Program-made: the position numbers and the translations under genes
Origin: Nonlabens ponticola
Lineage (GTDB): Bacteria; Bacteroidota; Bacteroidia; Flavobacteriales; Flavobacteriaceae
Assembly (NCBI RefSeq): GCF_003966335.1
Contig: NZ_CP034549.1
Coordinates: 2,580,001 to 2,612,000, forward strand
Direction: 5' to 3'
Length of the DNA: 32,000 nt
Shown here: positions 1-7,262 of the stretch, in pieces
Position numbering within the stretch: position 1 is the first letter of the stretch
Layout of the letters: the number at the start of each line of letters is the position of its first letter
The notes under the pieces: generated by a model
Told to the model about the DNA's origin: nothing
Seen by the model: the letters and a program-made list of their open reading frames with translations, nothing else
Database searches by the model: none

Positions 1-1
1 T

Positions 2-2962
2 ACAGGGATATTTCAAGGTCAAGAAATATGTGAGGCTAACTTTACCGTGTACTCACCAGAATTCTTAGCAAAACAGCAAAATATCGCCTTCAATGAGATA
101 GGATATGGTAACCGTTTAACGCTTACCGAAGGTAATCTAGTAGAGAACGTTCAAAACCTTCAATTAGCAAATGGTTTAAAGCCTAGTGAACGTAGCGAGA
201 TAGACAGAAACCATTTAGATTTTACCATAGAGATGGAAACAGGTACAGGTAAAACCTATGTGTATTTGCGTTCTATTATGGAGTTATACACCAAATATGG
301 TTTTTCAAAACATATTATCGTAGTACCATCAATTCCTATCAAAGAAGGTGTGTATAAATCACTTCAAATCACTGAAGACCATTTCAAGCAATTATATGAT
401 AACCTCAACTACAATTTCTTTATATATGACAGTAGTAAACTGAATGAAGTGCGAGACTTTTCTACCAATGATGGTTTATCCATTATGGTCATTAACATTG
501 ATGCGTTTCGCAAAAGCTTTGAAAATCCAGAAGATGCTAAAAAGAAGGCAAACATCATTCATCGTTATAACGATAAGTTAGGATACAAGCCTTTAGACCT
601 CATCAAAAACACAAATCCAGTAGTGTTTATCGATGAACCTCAAAGTACAATGAGTACACCACTGGCTAAAAAGGCTGTGCAAGGTTTAAATCCGTTGGCT
701 ATTCTTCGTTATTCAGCGACACATAAAGAGAAGGTGAATTTAATGTACAAGCTGGATGCAGTAGATGCCTATGACAAAAAGCTGGTAAAGCAAATAGAAG
801 TAGGTTCTATACAGACTGAAGGTATGAATAATCAAGCGTACATACGTTTATTAGAAGTTCGCTCAAGGCGAAATACAATAGAAGCTCGTGTTGAGGTAGA
901 TGTAATGCAAGGTGGAAGCATTCAACGAGTCAAAAAATGGGTAAAGCAAAACCAAGACCTAGAAGAACTTACAGGACGTATTGAATATGAAGGCTACATC
1001 ATCAAAGATATTTACGTAGCCGATGAATACATCGATTTTACAAGTCGTGATGGAGAATTAAAGGTTGGTGAAGCTATTGGTAGTGTAGATGATAAACAAA
1101 TTAAGACCGCTTTGATAAGTAAAACAATCGAAGCACATTTGGATAAGGAATTAGTGCTCAATCCGCAAGGAATAAAGGTGCTCAGTTTATTCTTTATTGA
1201 TTCCGTAGGTAAATATCGAGTGTATGATGAAGAAGGAAATGCCTCTCTAGGGGAATACGCAGAAATTTTTGAAAAGGAATACCAAAAGCTCATCAAGAAA
1301 ACCAAGTATGCAAGCCTGTTTGGAGAAATGAAAGATGTTGAAGTAGATGCTTCAGAAGTTCACAATGGTTATTTTTCTATTGATAAGAAAAGTAAAGCGA
1401 GTAACAAAAAAGAGAAGTTTGAATACTTCAAGGATACCACTGGTAAAGTGAATGCAGATGAGTATACCTATAATCTTATTATGCGTGATAAGGAAAAGTT
1501 ACTGAGTTTTGATTCTAAGTTGCGTTTTATCTTTTCGCACTCAGCATTAAAAGAAGGATGGGATAATCCTAATGTGTTCCAGATATGTACGTTGAAGGAT
1601 GCTGGTAATTCAGACATTAGAAGAAGACAGGAAATTGGTCGAGGTTTACGATTATGCGTAAACCAAGATGGAGAACGTGTATATGGCTTTGAAACCAATA
1701 CATTAACCGTAATGGCTACAGAATCTTATGTGGATTTTGTAGATAACCTTCAGAAGGAAATTGAAGCCGATACAGGAATTAAATTCGGAATTCTGGAATC
1801 ACACAGTTTTAATAATGTCGTTATGAGTATCGATGGTGATGAGGTAGAATATTTAGGTCAAGAAAAATCAGAACAACTTTATGACTTCCTCATCCTAAAA
1901 GGATACATCGATATGAGAGGTAAAGTACAAGATTTACTGCGTATTGCTATAAAAGATGATGCAGTAGAACTTCCTGAAGAATTTACTGAAAGTGAACACG
2001 TAGAAAATCAAATCTTAAGTAATTTAAAAGCAGCAGCTGGAAAACTTCAGATTAAGAATCAGGACGATAAGAAGAAAGTACGAGTAAACAAACGAGTACT
2101 TAACAGTCCAGAATTCAAAGAACTTTGGGAGCGAGTAAAGTATAAGACTACATTCTCAGTAGATTTTGATTCAGATAGCTTAGTGAAGGAGTGTATTAGA
2201 GCTCTAGACGATAGATTAAAGATTACTAGAGGGAAGCTTCATTATACTAAAGTTAAGGTCGCTATGAGTATCGGAGGACTTCAAGTCAATGAAGACCCAA
2301 CTACTTATTTTGAGAATGTTAAAGACGAAGTTGAGGTATTGCCAGATATTGTAGGATACCTTCAAAATGAAACTCAATTAACACGCAAGTCTATTGTTAA
2401 GATACTCACAGAAACCAATAAGTTGGGCTACTTTAAAATAAATCCGCAAAAGTTTATTGAAGGTTGCATTGATATCATTAATGAGCAAATGCGTTTACAT
2501 ATTGTAGATGGTATTCAATACAAAAAGATAGGAGATTCTGAATATTACAGTCAGGAACTTTTTGAAAACGAAGAGCTTTTCGGTTACTTAAAAAGCAACC
2601 TCAGCGAAAGCGAAAAATCACCTTATGATTACGTAGTCTATGATTCAACCGTAGAGTCAAAACTAGCCAATGATTTTGAGAATAGTGATAATATTCCGGT
2701 ATACGCAAAACTCCCAAACTGGTTTAAAATTGACACACCATTAGGAACCTACAATCCAGATTGGGCTATCCTCTGGAAAGATGGCGATGATGAGAAGCTA
2801 TACTTTGTGGTAGAATCCAAAGGAACAACCCTATTCGGTGATTTAAGACCTAAAGAACAAGGTAAAATAGATTGTGGTAAAAAGCATTTCAAAGCTTTAG
2901 ATACAGAAATGATTGTAGCTGCAAGTATGGAGGATGTAACTAATCAGGCTTTGATGGCGTAA
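2..2962 (+). CDS. res: Type III restriction enzyme Res subunit (SF2 helicase plus C-terminal PD-(D/E)xK endonuclease), 5'-partial at the window edge
   Basis: The frame is open from nt 2 (TGIFQGQEICEANFT precedes the GTG at 47), so the gene starts upstream. Helicase motifs are EMETGTGKT (I), FIDEPQ (II), RYSATH (III), KEGWDNPNVFQICTL and QEIGRGLR (VI). C-terminal YNPDW...FVVESKG fits a PD...ExK nuclease. The IEMETGTGKTYVYLR / EGWDNPNVF pair is characteristic of Type III Res proteins. Stop is TAA at 2960-2962. Confidence 0.85.
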   Translation, partial: TGIFQGQEICEANFTVYSPEFLAKQQNIAFNEIGYGNRLTLTEGNLVENVQNLQLANGLKPSERSEIDRNHLDFTIEMETGTGKTYVYLRSIMELYTKYGFSKHIIVVPSIPIKEGVYKSLQITEDHFKQLYDNLNYNFFIYDSSKLNEVRDFSTNDGLSIMVINIDAFRKSFENPEDAKKKANIIHRYNDKLGYKPLDLIKNTNPVVFIDEPQSTMSTPLAKKAVQGLNPLAILRYSATHKEKVNLMYKLDAVDAYDKKLVKQIEVGSIQTEGMNNQAYIRLLEVRSRRNTIEARVEVDVMQGGSIQRVKKWVKQNQDLEELTGRIEYEGYIIKDIYVADEYIDFTSRDGELKVGEAIGSVDDKQIKTALISKTIEAHLDKELVLNPQGIKVLSLFFIDSVGKYRVYDEEGNASLGEYAEIFEKEYQKLIKKTKYASLFGEMKDVEVDASEVHNGYFSIDKKSKASNKKEKFEYFKDTTGKVNADEYTYNLIMRDKEKLLSFDSKLRFIFSHSALKEGWDNPNVFQICTLKDAGNSDIRRRQEIGRGLRLCVNQDGERVYGFETNTLTVMATESYVDFVDNLQKEIEADTGIKFGILESHSFNNVVMSIDGDEVEYLGQEKSEQLYDFLILKGYIDMRGKVQDLLRIAIKDDAVELPEEFTESEHVENQILSNLKAAAGKLQIKNQDDKKKVRVNKRVLNSPEFKELWERVKYKTTFSVDFDSDSLVKECIRALDDRLKITRGKLHYTKVKVAMSIGGLQVNEDPTTYFENVKDEVEVLPDIVGYLQNETQLTRKSIVKILTETNKLGYFKINPQKFIEGCIDIINEQMRLHIVDGIQYKKIGDSEYYSQELFENEELFGYLKSNLSESEKSPYDYVVYDSTVESKLANDFENSDNIPVYAKLPNWFKIDTPLGTYNPDWAILWKDGDDEKLYFVVESKGTTLFGDLRPKEQGKIDCGKKHFKALDTEMIVAASMEDVTNQALMA

Positions 2963-2971
2963 TTTGAAACT

Positions 2972-3550
2972 ATGGAAAAACCAGTAAAAGAAATTAAGGA
3001 GAATTATGCTAAGTATGAGGAGTTATTAGTGAACACTAAGAACACCTCAACAAAAGTTATAGTTCTTGATGAAATTAAAGGAAATCACAAAAATACCAGA
3101 GTTAAAAAAGTGGATGTGGAGCACACTTCCATTCCTGAAACATTGGAATTGATTGTGGAATCTAAGATTGAAAATAAAAAAGATTTTAAATTCAAACTTA
3201 GAGCACCTGAATATACTGGCATACCATTTTTTAGATTCGATTCTGATGGTGTAGCACATTACAATCGAATGCCAGATGTAGAATTACCAAAACAAAAAGT
3301 TGATACACCTCATTTTCATAAGTATGATGATGGAGGTAGAAACATAGCATACAAAACCGAATCATTAAAAAAAGAGACTGAAAAAGAAGCTTTATTGAAT
3401 GATATTAGTTTGTGTATGGCTCATTATTGTGATGAGTCTCAGACTTTTTACAATACTGATAAATATGTCGAAATCGTCCAGACTCCACCTACTGAAATGG
3501 ATTTCGATAGTAATAATGATAACCCAACCGAAGGCGTAGAATATGACTAA
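2972..3550 (+). CDS. Hypothetical protein, 192 aa (cassette gene 1)
   Basis: ATG lies 9 nt after the res stop and the 3' end overlaps the next gene by 8 nt. The N-terminal third is Lys/Glu-rich. The centre carries a His-containing block, FFRFDSDGVAHYN-x17-TPHFHKYDDGG. The C-terminal tail is acidic (TEMDFDSNNDNPTEGVEYD). I cannot assign a family. Confidence 0.6.
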   Translation: MEKPVKEIKENYAKYEELLVNTKNTSTKVIVLDEIKGNHKNTRVKKVDVEHTSIPETLELIVESKIENKKDFKFKLRAPEYTGIPFFRFDSDGVAHYNRMPDVELPKQKVDTPHFHKYDDGGRNIAYKTESLKKETEKEALLNDISLCMAHYCDESQTFYNTDKYVEIVQTPPTEMDFDSNNDNPTEGVEYD

Positions 3551-4370
3551 TCTAGAAAAAATAGTAATGAATGTTCGTCAATGCTTTGACCAATTATGGT
3601 CTTTCAAGCTTAGGGGAACAGACACCATAGAAATAAGTACACCATACTCAACTACCACAAGCAAGTTCGTTTCCATATATGTTACTGAAAGAGGTGGTAA
3701 GTTTATAGTTTCAGATGGAGGGCTTCTTAACAGTGAAGCGTACGAATCTGAAATTGACTATGAGAACCAATGTCTTCTAAAAATATTATATCATTTTGAG
3801 GCGTTTTATGAAGTAAAAAGAACTCAGGATAAAAAAGGCGTAAAGCATTATTACATGACTACTCAGAAAGAAAACCTCATTCCGAATATGGTTTATGAAA
3901 TGGCTCAGTTTGTTTCTATGTGCGCCTCAGCTGCAACAGTTCAATTTGAAGACCCAAAAGAAATAGAAGAAAGGAATAGTTTTAGGACTAAAGCAACTTC
4001 TTATATCAGTAGTAACTTCAAGAAGTATGAGCCTAAATTCAGAGCACCTTTAGATAAGGAGGAATTTCGTTCAGTAAGATTTAGTGTATTAATGGAGAGA
4101 CGAAATAGATTAAACCTTATTAGCTATGTAACAGGTTCTACCGCTGCTAATTTCAGAAATAGCATTGCGAGAGCCAATATGAATTTTGAGATAGCCAGCG
4201 CATCTAAATACAATGACTACATTGATAATAAAATAGTACTCGTAAATAATACCGCAGATGGTTTTGTGCTCAAACAGATAGGGAAGCAACTTAACATTTT
4301 GGAAGAACATACAGGTCAGGAAGCTGTTCAATGGTCTGAACGTGAGAAGTTATTAGCAGTTTTAAATTAG
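3543..4370 (+). CDS. Hypothetical protein, 275 aa (cassette gene 2), possibly DUF1828/DUF1829-like
   Basis: The start overlaps the upstream stop (ATGACTAA). The N-terminal pattern W.F.....DTIEISTPY......FVSIYVTERGGKFIVSDGG resembles what I remember of DUF1828 (TPF..h.D.I.IYV....g.y.lSDdG). This is unverified. No catalytic motif was recognised. Confidence 0.6.
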   Translation: MTNLEKIVMNVRQCFDQLWSFKLRGTDTIEISTPYSTTTSKFVSIYVTERGGKFIVSDGGLLNSEAYESEIDYENQCLLKILYHFEAFYEVKRTQDKKGVKHYYMTTQKENLIPNMVYEMAQFVSMCASAATVQFEDPKEIEERNSFRTKATSYISSNFKKYEPKFRAPLDKEEFRSVRFSVLMERRNRLNLISYVTGSTAANFRNSIARANMNFEIASASKYNDYIDNKIVLVNNTADGFVLKQIGKQLNILEEHTGQEAVQWSEREKLLAVLN

Positions 4371-4375
4371 ATTTT

Positions 4376-6118
4376 ATGACACTTAAATCCATTGAAATAC
4401 GAAATGTAAAAGGAATTGAACACAAGAAATTTGATTTAGATATTGTAGCAAATAAACCCAGCCTTCTTGTAGCTCCCAATGGTTTTGGAAAGAGTTCATT
4501 TACTTGTGGATTTAGTTCAATGAATAACGCTCGTATTGTTTTAAAAGATGAGGATAGATTTCGTGGAGATAACAATAATCATCCAATAATAAACATTGTT
4601 TATGAAAAAGAAGCTGGTAATATACTGAGCTTGTCAGCTACTCACGAATCAAATACTATCAAAGATGAATTTGATTATTTTACTATAAAAAGTACTTTAA
4701 AAGCTAAAGGTTCAGCGTCATTTTATGGTGGAGGTGCTACAGCAAGAATGATTATTGAGACAGTTGTGCTTATTGACACAATACCTCCAAATAGAAACTT
4801 TAATAATTATACAGTAACCGAATTGAGGCAAAGATTTGGAGGATGTGGTAGAGTTTTACCAAATCCAAATGTGGTTTTTGCCAATAGATTATTGGTAGAA
4901 AGACTTTCAGAAAACTATACAACTTTATCAAGAGGTTTTGGTCAGCAGGTAACCAATCGCATCCAGTTGATTATTGATGAAGTGAATGAACAGAATGGTA
5001 CTGCTGCTCAATTAAAGAATTGGATAAACGCAAATTGTATTGAAAGACTCAGGGAAATTAATCACCTATCAACATTAGCAGAAATAATCGGAAATTTTGA
5101 TATTGGTCAGGATAGTGAAGTAGATAACTTTTTATTAGCAATCCAAGTTATTTGGATTTACAATAGGGATGTAGATGCGTTTAAAGCTGCTTGTAAGTAT
5201 AGTAATTATAGAATGGCGAAAGATGAATTTGATATGAACCTTAGCCATTTTGATTCAACTTGGAAAAATATACGCACAACTCAAGAACAAGGAAGGTTGT
5301 TGTTAAAGTTCCCCAGAGCTAATGAAATATCCAATGGGCAGCGTGATATATTATCATTCATAGCTATGCTGTTTAAGGCTAAAATCAAGCTTCGGAAAAA
5401 TGCTAGTATTCTAATTATAGATGAGGTTTTCGATTATTTAGATGATGCTAATTTAGTTGCAGCTCAATATTACGTCACCAATTTTATTAAGGAGTATAAA
5501 GATAAAGGGAGGAAAATATATCCATTGATATTAACTCATTTAAATCCGCTCTATTTTAAAAACTATACTTTCAGTAATCAAAAAACTTATTATTTGGATA
5601 AATCATCAATGCAAGTTATTGATAGTATGAGGCGATTAATTGTTAATCGTAATGATGTCAATATTGCAGATGTAGTTTCTTCAAGACTATTGCATTATCA
5701 CCCAGAAGCTCCTGATAAAAGAGAAGAATTTAGAAACTTGAATATACGTGAGCTTTGGGGTGTTGGAACTACATTTAGAGATTTCACATTTGAGCAAGTA
5801 CAAAATTATATAGAAAATAATGCCTATGACCCTTTTGCAGTATGCTGCGGAGTTCGTGTAAAAGTAGAAATGCTTACTTATGCTAAAATTGATGATGATA
5901 ATAATAGAACCGAATTTTTGACAACAAAGAAAACAAGACCAAAATTAGATTTCGCAAAATCAATAGGTATTATATCACCTGAACCCTATTACCTTTTAGC
6001 AGTAATTTATAATGAAGGGATGCATTGGAAAAATAATGTTGATAATGTTTCACCAATCGCTTCCAAACTTGAAAATCTCACGATTAAGAAAATTATTTCT
6101 GACCTTTTCCAAGCTTAA
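4376..6118 (+). CDS. ABC/SMC-fold (AAA15/AAA21/PrrC-like) ATPase with a ~190-aa uncharacterised C-terminal domain (cassette gene 3)
   Basis: ATG lies 5 nt after the upstream stop. The N-terminus MTLKSIEIRNVKGI...F.L is typical of RecF/SMC-type ATPases. Walker A is APNGFGKSS (aa 33-41, nt 4472-4498). The signature-like motif is SNGQRDILSF, Walker B/D-loop is ILIIDEVFDYLDD, and the H-loop is LILTHLN. The C-terminal domain has R494-x3-E498 and NEGMH550. Confidence 0.8.
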   Translation: MTLKSIEIRNVKGIEHKKFDLDIVANKPSLLVAPNGFGKSSFTCGFSSMNNARIVLKDEDRFRGDNNNHPIINIVYEKEAGNILSLSATHESNTIKDEFDYFTIKSTLKAKGSASFYGGGATARMIIETVVLIDTIPPNRNFNNYTVTELRQRFGGCGRVLPNPNVVFANRLLVERLSENYTTLSRGFGQQVTNRIQLIIDEVNEQNGTAAQLKNWINANCIERLREINHLSTLAEIIGNFDIGQDSEVDNFLLAIQVIWIYNRDVDAFKAACKYSNYRMAKDEFDMNLSHFDSTWKNIRTTQEQGRLLLKFPRANEISNGQRDILSFIAMLFKAKIKLRKNASILIIDEVFDYLDDANLVAAQYYVTNFIKEYKDKGRKIYPLILTHLNPLYFKNYTFSNQKTYYLDKSSMQVIDSMRRLIVNRNDVNIADVVSSRLLHYHPEAPDKREEFRNLNIRELWGVGTTFRDFTFEQVQNYIENNAYDPFAVCCGVRVKVEMLTYAKIDDDNNRTEFLTTKKTRPKLDFAKSIGIISPEPYYLLAVIYNEGMHWKNNVDNVSPIASKLENLTIKKIISDLFQA

Positions 6119-6153
6119 AACTACAATTTAGTTCTGTTTTTCTTTCAAATTAA

Positions 6154-6197
6154 TTTTATAACAAATCGCTAACTAATGTTTGCAATTTGTTATAAAA
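6154..6197. repeat. 13-bp perfect inverted repeat (TTTTATAACAAAT / ATTTGTTATAAAA) with an 18-nt spacer. It could be a weak AT-rich terminator of the cassette or an operator/recombinase site.
   Basis: Arms at 6154-6166 and 6185-6197 were read directly. It sits 36 nt after the ATPase stop and 50 nt before the ATG at 6247. Confidence 0.5.
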
Positions 6198-6246
6198 ACC
6201 TGGTTATTTGTACTTTACAATATTTGAAAGGCAAAAAATCAGAATT

Positions 6247-6546
6247 ATGGAAATCGCAAAAATAATTTTAGGACAAATTAAATATCTAGATAAAATGGCA
6301 CTTATGGCTTGGGGAGCTAGAAACTTTGTAGCACTACCAAAGTCAAAAGAATTTCAAGGTGGTTTACGATTCAAAGTAAATGGTCTTAAACATCAAGGTT
6401 GGGTTACTATAGAGCTTACATATTTAGATGAGTACACGGTAACTTTTATTAATGAAGATGTTGAGGTGGTGAAAGTTCGTCACGGTGTTTATTGTGATAT
6501 GCTTGTAGATGTAATAGACTACATTGAGGGTAAAGAAGCGGCTTAA
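6247..6546 (+). CDS. Hypothetical small protein, 99 aa, translationally coupled to the serine recombinase
   Basis: The ORF track starts at TTG 6208. The in-frame ATG at 6247 (MEIAKIILGQ...) is more plausible. The stop TAA overlaps the recombinase ATG (TAATG at 6544-6548). No recognisable motif. Confidence 0.55.
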   Translation: MEIAKIILGQIKYLDKMALMAWGARNFVALPKSKEFQGGLRFKVNGLKHQGWVTIELTYLDEYTVTFINEDVEVVKVRHGVYCDMLVDVIDYIEGKEAA

Positions 6547-7262
6547 TGAAACAGTTCGTAGCATATTACAGAGTCAGTACGCAAAAGCAAGGGAAATCTG
6601 GGCTTGGTCTTCAAGCTCAGAAAAATGCTGTACTTCATCATACTGGAAGCAAAGGTGAAATCATAGGTGAGTTCACCGAAGTTGAAACAGGAACTCGTAA
6701 AAAGAAGCGCAAAGAAATCTATAAAGCTATTGATTTAGCTAAAAAAGAAAAAGCTACTCTAGTCGTTGCCAAGTTAGATAGACTTTCGAGAGATGTAGAG
6801 TTTACATCGGCTCTCTTTAATGGAGGTATTGATTTTGTTTGTTGTGACAATCCAGAAGCCAATAAACTTACGATTCAATTACTGTCGGTAATTGCAGAAC
6901 ACGAAGCATCGGTCATTTCAACTAGGATTAAAGATGCTCTAAGGGTTAAAAAGGAAAAAATTGCCAGAGGTGACTACACTAATAAGGATGGTTCTCAAAT
7001 GAAAATGGTAAATGGCAAAGTTCGTTTAGGTAACCCGAACGGCTTTGGTGAGTACCAAAAATTAGGAGTTGAGAAGATTAAAGAGAACGCTAGGAACAAT
7101 AAGGCTAACATACAAGCCAAAGACATCATTTGTTCTGCTCGTAAAGAGGGCTTAACCTACCAACAAATAGCCGATAAATTAAATAAATTACAATATACAA
7201 CTAGAACAGGAAAGCAGTTTCACGCCACACAGGTACAAAGATTACATAAAAGGTGTATTTAG
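6546..7262 (+). CDS. Small serine recombinase (resolvase/invertase family) with a C-terminal HTH
   Basis: N-terminal YYRVSTQKQ carries the catalytic Ser context. LVVAKLDRLSRD is a resolvase core motif, followed by VIAEHE. The C-terminal LTYQQIADKLN...TRTGKQFHATQVQRL fits a helix-turn-helix. At 238 aa it is too short for a large serine integrase. Confidence 0.85.
   Translation: MKQFVAYYRVSTQKQGKSGLGLQAQKNAVLHHTGSKGEIIGEFTEVETGTRKKKRKEIYKAIDLAKKEKATLVVAKLDRLSRDVEFTSALFNGGIDFVCCDNPEANKLTIQLLSVIAEHEASVISTRIKDALRVKKEKIARGDYTNKDGSQMKMVNGKVRLGNPNGFGEYQKLGVEKIKENARNNKANIQAKDIICSARKEGLTYQQIADKLNKLQYTTRTGKQFHATQVQRLHKRCI

Follow-up and report, generated by a model that had tools for sequence, protein, structure and literature searches.

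We describe here a protein of 580 amino acids (aa) from Nonlabens ponticola (Flavobacteriaceae), which belongs to an unnamed family in which an ATP-binding cassette (ABC) ATPase head is followed by a C-terminal domain with a small number of strictly conserved residues. Its open reading frame (ORF), taken from the ORF list of the sequence, occupies positions 4376..6118 of a stretch of 32,000 nucleotides (nt; positions 2,580,001 to 2,612,000 of contig NZ_CP034549.1), which is referred to below as the window; like all other features of the window discussed here, it lies on the forward strand. By analogy, the protein probably works like the ABC-type NTPases PrrC and RloC, and it is not a demonstrable member of either the PrrC/RloC or the HEPN group. 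The gene is carried in defence islands, where it is recurrently co-directional with unrelated DNA-targeting systems. Our overall model, to which we give about an even chance, is that of a self-contained, single-protein defence module of the abortive-infection type, in which the ABC head would control an effector formed by the C-terminal domain, in a PrrC/RloC-like way of working.

The most informative feature of the protein is the pattern of conservation in its C-terminal part, which was examined in a set of 126 full-length sequences, each representing one 50%-identity cluster and sharing 29-52% identity with the query, and in a second alignment of 106 sequences with a mean column identity of 34%. 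Three residues, R494 (codon CGT, 5855-5857), E498 (codon GAA, 5867-5869) and H550 (codon CAT, 6023-6025), are each present in 126/126 representatives; the first two lie on helix 486-503 (surrounding sequence PFAVCCGVRVKVEMLTYAKI) and the third is found just past helix 542-548 (surrounding sequence YLLAVIYNEGMHWKNNVD). In the 106-sequence alignment, only 15 of the 580 columns are invariant. Ten of them are residues of the ATPase motifs (N35, K39, S319, D324, D349, D353, Y354, D356, Q364 and H388), and the remaining five, all within the C-terminal domain, are R425 (5648..5650, right after helix 416-423), H440 (5693..5695, right after helix 431-438), R494, E498 and H550. The pair R494-x3-E498 (5855..5869) belongs to the family consensus LRxxIEK, while N546-x3-H550 (6011..6025), at the end of helix 542-548, has the consensus IYNxxLH. 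Three further positions are near-invariant in the 126 representatives (95-97%), namely T520 and K523 at the start of helix 520-529 (5933..5944; 97% and 96%, respectively) and N546 (95%). In the AlphaFold2 models, R494 and E498 are spaced one helical turn apart, and the five invariant residues of the domain are mostly located at helix ends or in loops. Judged from the alignments, such conservation is the signature of a functional site and goes far beyond chance. An earlier note, made from the sequence alone, had pointed to R494, E498 and H550 as reminiscent of the PrrC anticodon-nuclease triad and had proposed to check their invariance among homologues; it placed all three correctly in residue and coordinate and their invariance was borne out, although the invariant R425 and H440 and the near-invariant N546 had escaped it.

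The family is large. More than 2,224 homologues were found in a database of 90%-identity clusters, all of them named 'hypothetical' or carrying generic or spurious ATPase or ABC-transporter labels, and 595 clusters at 50% identity matched at E<=0.001, including 307 at E<=1e-30. A tblastn search at E<=1e-3 against the genomes of 185,579 species, each represented once, returned 226 matching stretches. The taxonomic distribution, assessed on the 80 best of these 226 stretches, is very broad and patchy, with loci in Bacteroidota, Cyanobacteria, Bacillota, Pseudomonadota, Campylobacterota, Actinomycetota, Chlorobiota, Fibrobacterota, Gemmatimonadota, Planctomycetota and Bdellovibrionota. Members are also encoded on ten IMG/VR viral contigs and three plasmids, and none was found in the GenBank records of cultured phages. 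Pfam and NCBIfam contain no model of the family (SMC_N reaches the head below threshold), PADLOC v2 gave weak matches to the head alone, and a limited literature search found no paper on it. The family is best called previously undescribed, while the architecture itself, an ABC-ATPase/effector fusion linked to restriction systems, is known.

By its sequence, the N-terminal part of approximately 400 aa (4376..5602) is an ABC ATPase head of the SMC/Rad50/RecF/PtuA type, whose set of catalytic motifs is complete. It contains a Walker A motif or P-loop, N35-G-F-G-K39-S-S41 (4478..4498), in which N35 and K39 are invariant and G36 and G38 are conserved in at least 98% of sequences; a signature-like motif, S319-N-G-Q-R-D324 (5330..5347; S319 and D324 invariant, N320, G321 and R323 at least 90%); a Walker B motif with D-loop, I345-L-I-I-D349-E350-V-F-D353-Y-L-D356 (5408..5443; D349, D353, Y354 and D356 invariant, E350 99%); and the invariant switch histidine H388 of the H-loop (5537..5539). 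The Pfam model SMC_N matched the head at 1.8e-7, which is under the gathering cut-off. When the full-length AlphaFold2 model was searched with Foldseek, 83 PDB matches were obtained at E<=0.001, the top ones being the heads of cohesin Smc (4e-8), retron-Eco7/Ec78 PtuA (6e-8) and Rad50 (1e-7), followed by Septu PtuA and RecF at about 5e-6 (PtuA structures ranged from 6e-8 to 1e-5). A compact helical insert of approximately 145 aa (aa ~147-292) stands in place of the long coiled coil. Weak N-terminal matches to PADLOC models included AbiLi (6.6e-6) as well as ATPase-Toprim, LmuB and PtuA (approximately 1e-3 to 1e-4), the PtuA matches (6e-4 to 2e-2) being confined to the first ~40 aa.

Since the best structural matches of the head are Smc, Rad50 and RecF, it could be asked whether the protein is a housekeeping ABC ATPase of DNA repair or chromosome maintenance (RecF/RecN/SMC-like). 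We consider this very improbable: a mere 226 tblastn stretches across so many species do not fit a housekeeping gene, the loci are AT-rich defence islands flanked by integrases or recombinases, a long coiled coil is missing, and the NCBIfam RecF model scored 17.7 against a cut-off of 172.

The earlier note had also taken the last ~190 aa for a separate domain. This domain is real, and its boundaries can be set at aa ~410-580 (5603..6115), after the H-loop histidine H388 and the last beta strand (residues 403-406), from which the chain is wholly helical to the C-terminus. Modelled alone with AlphaFold2, residues 401-580 gave 12 helices with a predicted local distance difference test score (pLDDT) of 96.1 and a predicted template modelling score (pTM) of 0.91; identical C-domain helices were obtained in the full-length model (pLDDT 95.6, pTM 0.85). 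This all-alpha domain, the putative effector, has no detectable homologue. Scans of the whole protein against Pfam, PADLOC and NCBIfam gave no match to it, and no recurrent family emerged when 43 diverse C-domains were compared with Pfam at E<=10, the stray matches including DUF4145 (0.034) and HEPN_RiboL-PSP (0.77) in one sequence each. The C-domain profile matched no PDB sequence, and the single query sequence produced only two chance KorA matches (E 0.5-0.6). At the structural level, a Foldseek search of the C-domain model against the PDB (350,542 chains) and BFVD found nothing at E<=0.001. The highest-probability PDB match was the HEPN toxin SO_3166 (5yep_C; E 3.7, probability 0.18), which is at noise level, as is a match to Las1 (8j60_C, E 8.9); SO_3166 also had the highest TM score among the PDB matches (0.34/0.42, the latter when normalised by the target), with a root-mean-square deviation of 6.2 A.

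Several known enzyme classes were considered for the C-terminal domain and ruled out. An HD phosphohydrolase would need an HD doublet and Fic/Doc the motif HxFxxGNGR, neither of which is present. The PD-(D/E)xK, HNH, PIN and Toprim folds need beta strands or acidic clusters and were rejected for a purely helical domain in which a single acidic residue is invariant.

A relationship to PrrC, RloC or HEPN proteins had been proposed in the earlier note, which suggested that the protein might be a divergent RNase of this kind. The part of this proposal that concerns a fused effector is plausible from the restriction-modification (R-M) and defence context of the gene, whereas homology was not detected. 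The 580-aa protein had no match at E<=1 to PF13166 (AAA_13), to the PrrC/RloC-type models of PADLOC or to the HEPN-clan models of Pfam. For comparison, an EcoPrrC control sequence matched the PADLOC PrrC model at 5.3e-148 and shared up to 93% identity with database entries that carry the name 'anticodon nuclease'; database and plasmid sequences took its place in the profile comparisons. PF13166 was present in 120/120 listed PrrC homologues and in 0/120 listed homologues of the 580-aa protein. Two PrrC alignments were used for profile comparison, one of 25 close homologues and one of 16 diverse sequences down to 30% identity, ten of which came from plasmids. With hhalign, profiles of the C-domain (43 or 126 sequences) reached a probability of just 0.2-0.7% against both PrrC profiles and the motifs were never in register; all variants (close or diverse PrrC alignments, local or global modes, trimmed query) were negative for the C-domain. 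The full-length protein aligned with PrrC in the segment from Walker B to the H-loop alone (probability 53%, E 1.4e-4). The profile comparisons with PF13166, HEPN and PrrC/RloC models that the earlier note had suggested therefore reveal no similarity of the C-domain, and the structural comparison with HEPN folds ended at noise level, as described above.

There are, nevertheless, similarities that can be seen by eye. The consensus LRxxIEK of the family resembles LRx(I/L)(L/Y)EK of PrrC (L319-R320-x-x-(L/Y)-E324-K325), and IYNxxLH resembles R(I/L)(I/V)NxxSH (R349-(I/L)-(I/V)-N352-x-x-S-H356), the two motifs being collinear. N546, four residues ahead of H550, matches Asn352 ahead of His356, a position that is mostly Asn in PrrC, and an invariant His is found upstream in both proteins (H440 here and H295 in PrrC). 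The PrrC positions were checked on ten plasmid homologues (L097-L106), which are 30-59% identical to a PrrC homologue that is itself 93% identical to the EcoPrrC control. The invariant residues of their nuclease domain are H295, H315, L319, R320, E324, K325, F329, G331, R349, S355 and H356, with N352 being mostly Asn and once Asp. In PrrC, R320, E324, N352, H356, H295 and R349 are each essential for toxicity, N352A and H356A being non-toxic (PMC3025547), and the HEPN RNase RnlA uses an R255/E258 pair together with R318/H323 (PMC8266594). Both PrrC and RnlA cleave RNA in a metal-independent manner with sets of Arg/Glu and Arg/His residues (PMC3025547; PMC8266594).

These observations would fit an extremely diverged anticodon nuclease of the PrrC/RloC type (HEPN superfamily), in which R494/E498 correspond to R320/E324 and N546/H550 to N352/H356, with a helical insertion of approximately 20 residues between them. 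All four of the matching PrrC positions are essential for toxicity (PMC3025547), the architecture of an ABC head plus C-terminal domain and the R-M link are common to both proteins, and the top-probability, though non-significant, Foldseek match is a HEPN toxin, with Las1 also present. The literature documents HEPN families that carry insertions as long as 60 aa or that lack the motif Arg (PMC3710099). The difference in Glu-to-His spacing (52 versus 32 residues) is no real objection, given that HEPN domains accommodate as many as 60 inserted residues. However, the resemblance was noticed post hoc and is without statistical support, and the profile and model searches, as well as the noise-level Foldseek E values (3.7 and 8.9), speak against it. 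The canonical HEPN motif Rx4-6H is absent: positions -5 to -7 from H550 are occupied by Y545, I544 and V543 instead of Arg, so that only the polar Asn and the His of the motif are kept, and R349 and H315 of PrrC have no obvious counterpart. We therefore regard a diverged PrrC as unlikely, and a true distant PrrC/HEPN homology is equally unlikely as a component of our overall model.

The genomic context of the family was compared in 84 related loci by all-against-all clustering of up to five neighbouring genes on either side. No conserved partner gene was found, the largest neighbour cluster being HsdS in 10/84 loci. Type I hsdM/S/R genes are located directly upstream on the same strand in ten loci (L001, L002, L007, L008, L016, L028, L031, L033, L071 and L080), where the ATPase gene stands at the 3′ end of the operon. 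Type IIG or Eco57I-like genes are directly upstream in L037 and L040, Type III genes in L005 and the window, and large helicase-nuclease genes in L019 and L057. Where the ATPase directly follows an R-M gene or a 164-aa ORF described below, the gap is -38 to +19 nt. In one locus (L052), the family gene lies between PglX (E=0) and PglZ (1e-204), with BrxC and BrxL around it, that is, inside a BREX system. Approximately one-fifth of loci thus adjoin DNA-targeting immune genes; this is the raw share of loci and a lower bound, as the detection of divergent R-M genes is incomplete. Wadjet JetA/JetC, DRT UG5-nitrilase, TIR clusters, ThsB (Thoeris), AriA and PD-T4-7 were found at other loci, together with several PDC families, toxin-antitoxin genes, integrases and transposases elsewhere, and many loci are stand-alone (e.g., L004 and L096). 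The link to R-M and other DNA-targeting operons across many genomes makes a PrrC/RloC-like combination of an ATPase and a fused effector plausible.

In addition, some of these loci contain genes that may be of separate interest. A Cys-rich protein of 164 aa (CMMCGN...GCNC), with no Pfam match, is encoded immediately ahead of the ATPase gene, at a distance of 17-19 nt, in five loci from Bacteroidota and elsewhere (L006, L007, L008, L020 and L033; e.g., L008 9492-9986); it lies between hsdS and the ATPase gene in three of the five and could be an accessory or regulator of a subfamily. The BREX locus, from a Sulfurimonas metagenome-assembled genome (L052 2669-17964), is a complete operon whose genes embedded between pglX and pglZ include the ATPase homologue and a gene for a 518-aa protein resembling pAgo/SIR2-associated proteins (3.8e-26), separated by a 138-aa ORF. 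In Planktothrix, a distinct ATPase of 574 aa with SMC_N/AAA_23 similarity (L004 2426-4150) is encoded approximately 4 kb upstream of the family member, within a toxin-antitoxin-rich island where an MmeI-type enzyme is found as well, together with actin- and profilin-like genes.

In the window itself, the ATPase gene is the last in a tight row of four co-directional genes, which are separated by 9, -8 and 5 nt. The first is the restriction subunit of a Type III system (res, 1..2962; PADLOC REase_III 1.4e-302; Pfam ResIII and RE_endonuc). Its frame is open to the left edge, and its PADLOC alignment begins at model position 43; because the stretch from position 2 to the GTG at 47 is free of in-frame stops, res starts to the left of the window. 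In the Algibacter locus L005, which is 78% identical, res comes after a Type III mod gene (PADLOC 7.9e-189), and a mod gene is presumably located just outside the window, left of res. Between res and the ATPase gene are two genes that encode a 192-aa PDC-M24A-like protein (2972-3550; PADLOC 6.5e-5, partial coverage) and a 275-aa PDC-M24B-like protein (3543-4370; PADLOC 3.6e-5, partial coverage, with faint similarity to DUF1828). They follow the order of the models, and the matches are weak (~1e-5). PDC-M24 is a two-family candidate cassette found embedded in immune operons (Payne et al. 2024), and the pair in the window may be a diverged copy of it, wedged between res and the ATPase gene.

The close packing of res, the 192-aa and 275-aa genes and the ATPase gene, and the preservation of this order in Algibacter L005, raise the question of whether the ATPase works together with the PDC-M24-like pair as one three-gene system, with the pair supplying the effector or the sensor and the ATPase serving as third subunit, a reading that overlaps with others discussed here. 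It is quite improbable in our view: the pair adjoins the ATPase in the window and L005 alone among the 84 loci and the window, and PDC-M24 was defined as a stand-alone two-gene cassette to which the PADLOC matches are weak. The suggestion of the earlier note that the protein guards a Type III system proved too specific on two counts, as these two genes stand between res and the ATPase gene, and as relatives occur beside Type I, IIG and III R-M systems, inside BREX or alone.

Downstream of the ATPase gene, a 112-aa ORF with a TTG start (6208-6546) overlaps by 1 nt the gene for a serine recombinase of 238 aa (6546-7262; Pfam Resolvase 4.1e-22). A recombinase is likewise found after the homologue on a Brochothrix plasmid (L095 9008-9568), where a Type III-like helicase and methyltransferase are encoded close by, and the arrangement of ATPase and recombinase may be a mobile cassette. 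The GC content is 31-36% in the first ~7 kb (the block 1-7262) and 36-45% in most of the region 8000-32000; such an AT-rich block fits a horizontally acquired defence island with its right end near 7.3-8.2 kb. A scan of the window for tRNA genes found none.

With respect to function, characterised defence ABC ATPases are reported to work without exception with an effector that is either fused to them or encoded next to them (bioRxiv 10.1101/2024.01.29.577857), and since such heads pair with an effector and nothing is conserved next door, the C-terminal domain of the family should be the effector. The ATPase head would then act as a sensor or switch, as in PrrC, RloC, OLD, PARIS and Septu. As to chemistry, the conserved set comprises Arg, His, Glu, Lys, Thr and Asn without an acidic metal-binding cluster, so that the metal-independent RNA transesterification known from PrrC, RloC and HEPN RNases appears likeliest. 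Cleavage would stop translation in the infected cell when the first-line DNA defence is subverted. One form of this proposal, which we put forward tentatively, is that the C-terminal domain represents a new fold of metal-independent RNase, related neither to HEPN nor to PrrC, in a new and widespread single-gene abortive-infection system. Such a module would accompany R-M operons of Type I, IIG and III at their 3′ end and BREX operons from within, acting as a second defence layer that is set off once R-M or BREX comes under attack.

An alternative is that the C-terminal domain serves as a sensor, ligand-binding or oligomerisation module, recognising a nucleotide, DNA or a phage protein, and that killing or protection is left to the neighbouring system or another protein. 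Sites that bind phosphate or nucleotides also typically contain Arg, His, Lys and Thr, PrrC has a regulatory dTTP-binding function (PMC3710099), Foldseek detected no nuclease fold and the gene often shares a transcription unit with R-M or BREX genes, all of which would agree with such a role. On the other hand, the family as a whole has no conserved partner gene and many loci are stand-alone, the neighbouring systems are of unrelated types, which makes a single common protein partner unlikely, and the invariance of Arg, Glu and His across phyla is more typical of catalysis. We consider this alternative unlikely. The proposal of a self-contained module with a fused effector has its own difficulties, as approximately 75-80% of loci lack an adjacent R-M or BREX system, the RNase chemistry is deduced from residue types and analogy alone, profile and fold searches found no similarity to HEPN, PrrC or another nuclease, and the tight packing with the two PDC-M24-like genes in the window leaves room for a multi-gene system.

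If the tail is indeed the effector, this family, which numbers over 2,000 proteins from ten or more phyla, would offer a new solution to the design of ATPase sensor plus toxic enzyme that is known from PrrC, RloC, OLD, PARIS and Septu, with a catalytic domain without structural precedent. As its genes recur both within DNA-targeting systems of unrelated types and at their ends, the family provides a tractable case for how embedded back-up defences sense the failure of the first line, and the eight conserved residues of the C-terminal domain (R425, H440, R494, E498, T520, K523, N546 and H550) are ready targets for mutagenesis.

Among known systems, PrrC offers a close parallel, as it also combines an N-terminal ABC-type NTPase and a helical C-terminal domain of approximately 130-170 aa in one polypeptide, has an invariant Arg-x3-Glu and a later Asn-x3-His in that domain (the equivalence of the residues being drawn by eye), and is often encoded in R-M operons. 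The two proteins differ in size (approximately 396 aa in PrrC versus 580 aa here), in the 145-aa helical insert of the present head, in the distance from Glu to His and in the lack of an obvious counterpart of PrrC R349 and H315. They also differ in gene position: PrrC genes lie between hsdS and hsdR or hsdM (9/10 of the plasmid homologues, the tenth, L099, being without annotation), whereas the present genes most often stand alone and, within operons, usually take the 3′ end (Type I, IIG or III), with a single case inside BREX. RloC likewise has an ABC head with a fused C-terminal effector that carries an Arg-Glu-His triad (PMC3025547), and it is mostly unlinked to R-M and therefore self-regulating; it differs by a long coiled coil with a zinc hook, neither of which is found here, and the RloC-like PDC-S06 models of PADLOC are matched by PrrC and not by the 580-aa protein.

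The HEPN proteins (HepT/SO_3166, RnlA/LsoA, Cas13, Csm6 and KEN) share with the C-terminal domain a small all-alpha make-up, a His preceded by a polar residue, an upstream Arg/Glu pair (as in RnlA) and a frequent link to R-M (PMC3710099), but they are four-helix bundles of 100-120 aa, compared with approximately 170 aa and 12 helices here, where Y545 occupies the Arg position of Rx4-6H. For the ATPase head, PtuA of Septu and retrons is among the closest solved structures; no adjacent HNH nuclease PtuB is conserved at the loci of the family. More generally, the logic of an ABC sensor plus an effector is shared with PtuA, AriA, GajA, OLD, LmuB, HEC-01 to HEC-04 and AbiLi, which differ from the present family in that their effector is a Toprim, HNH, PIN or NERD domain, either fused or encoded in a conserved adjacent gene.

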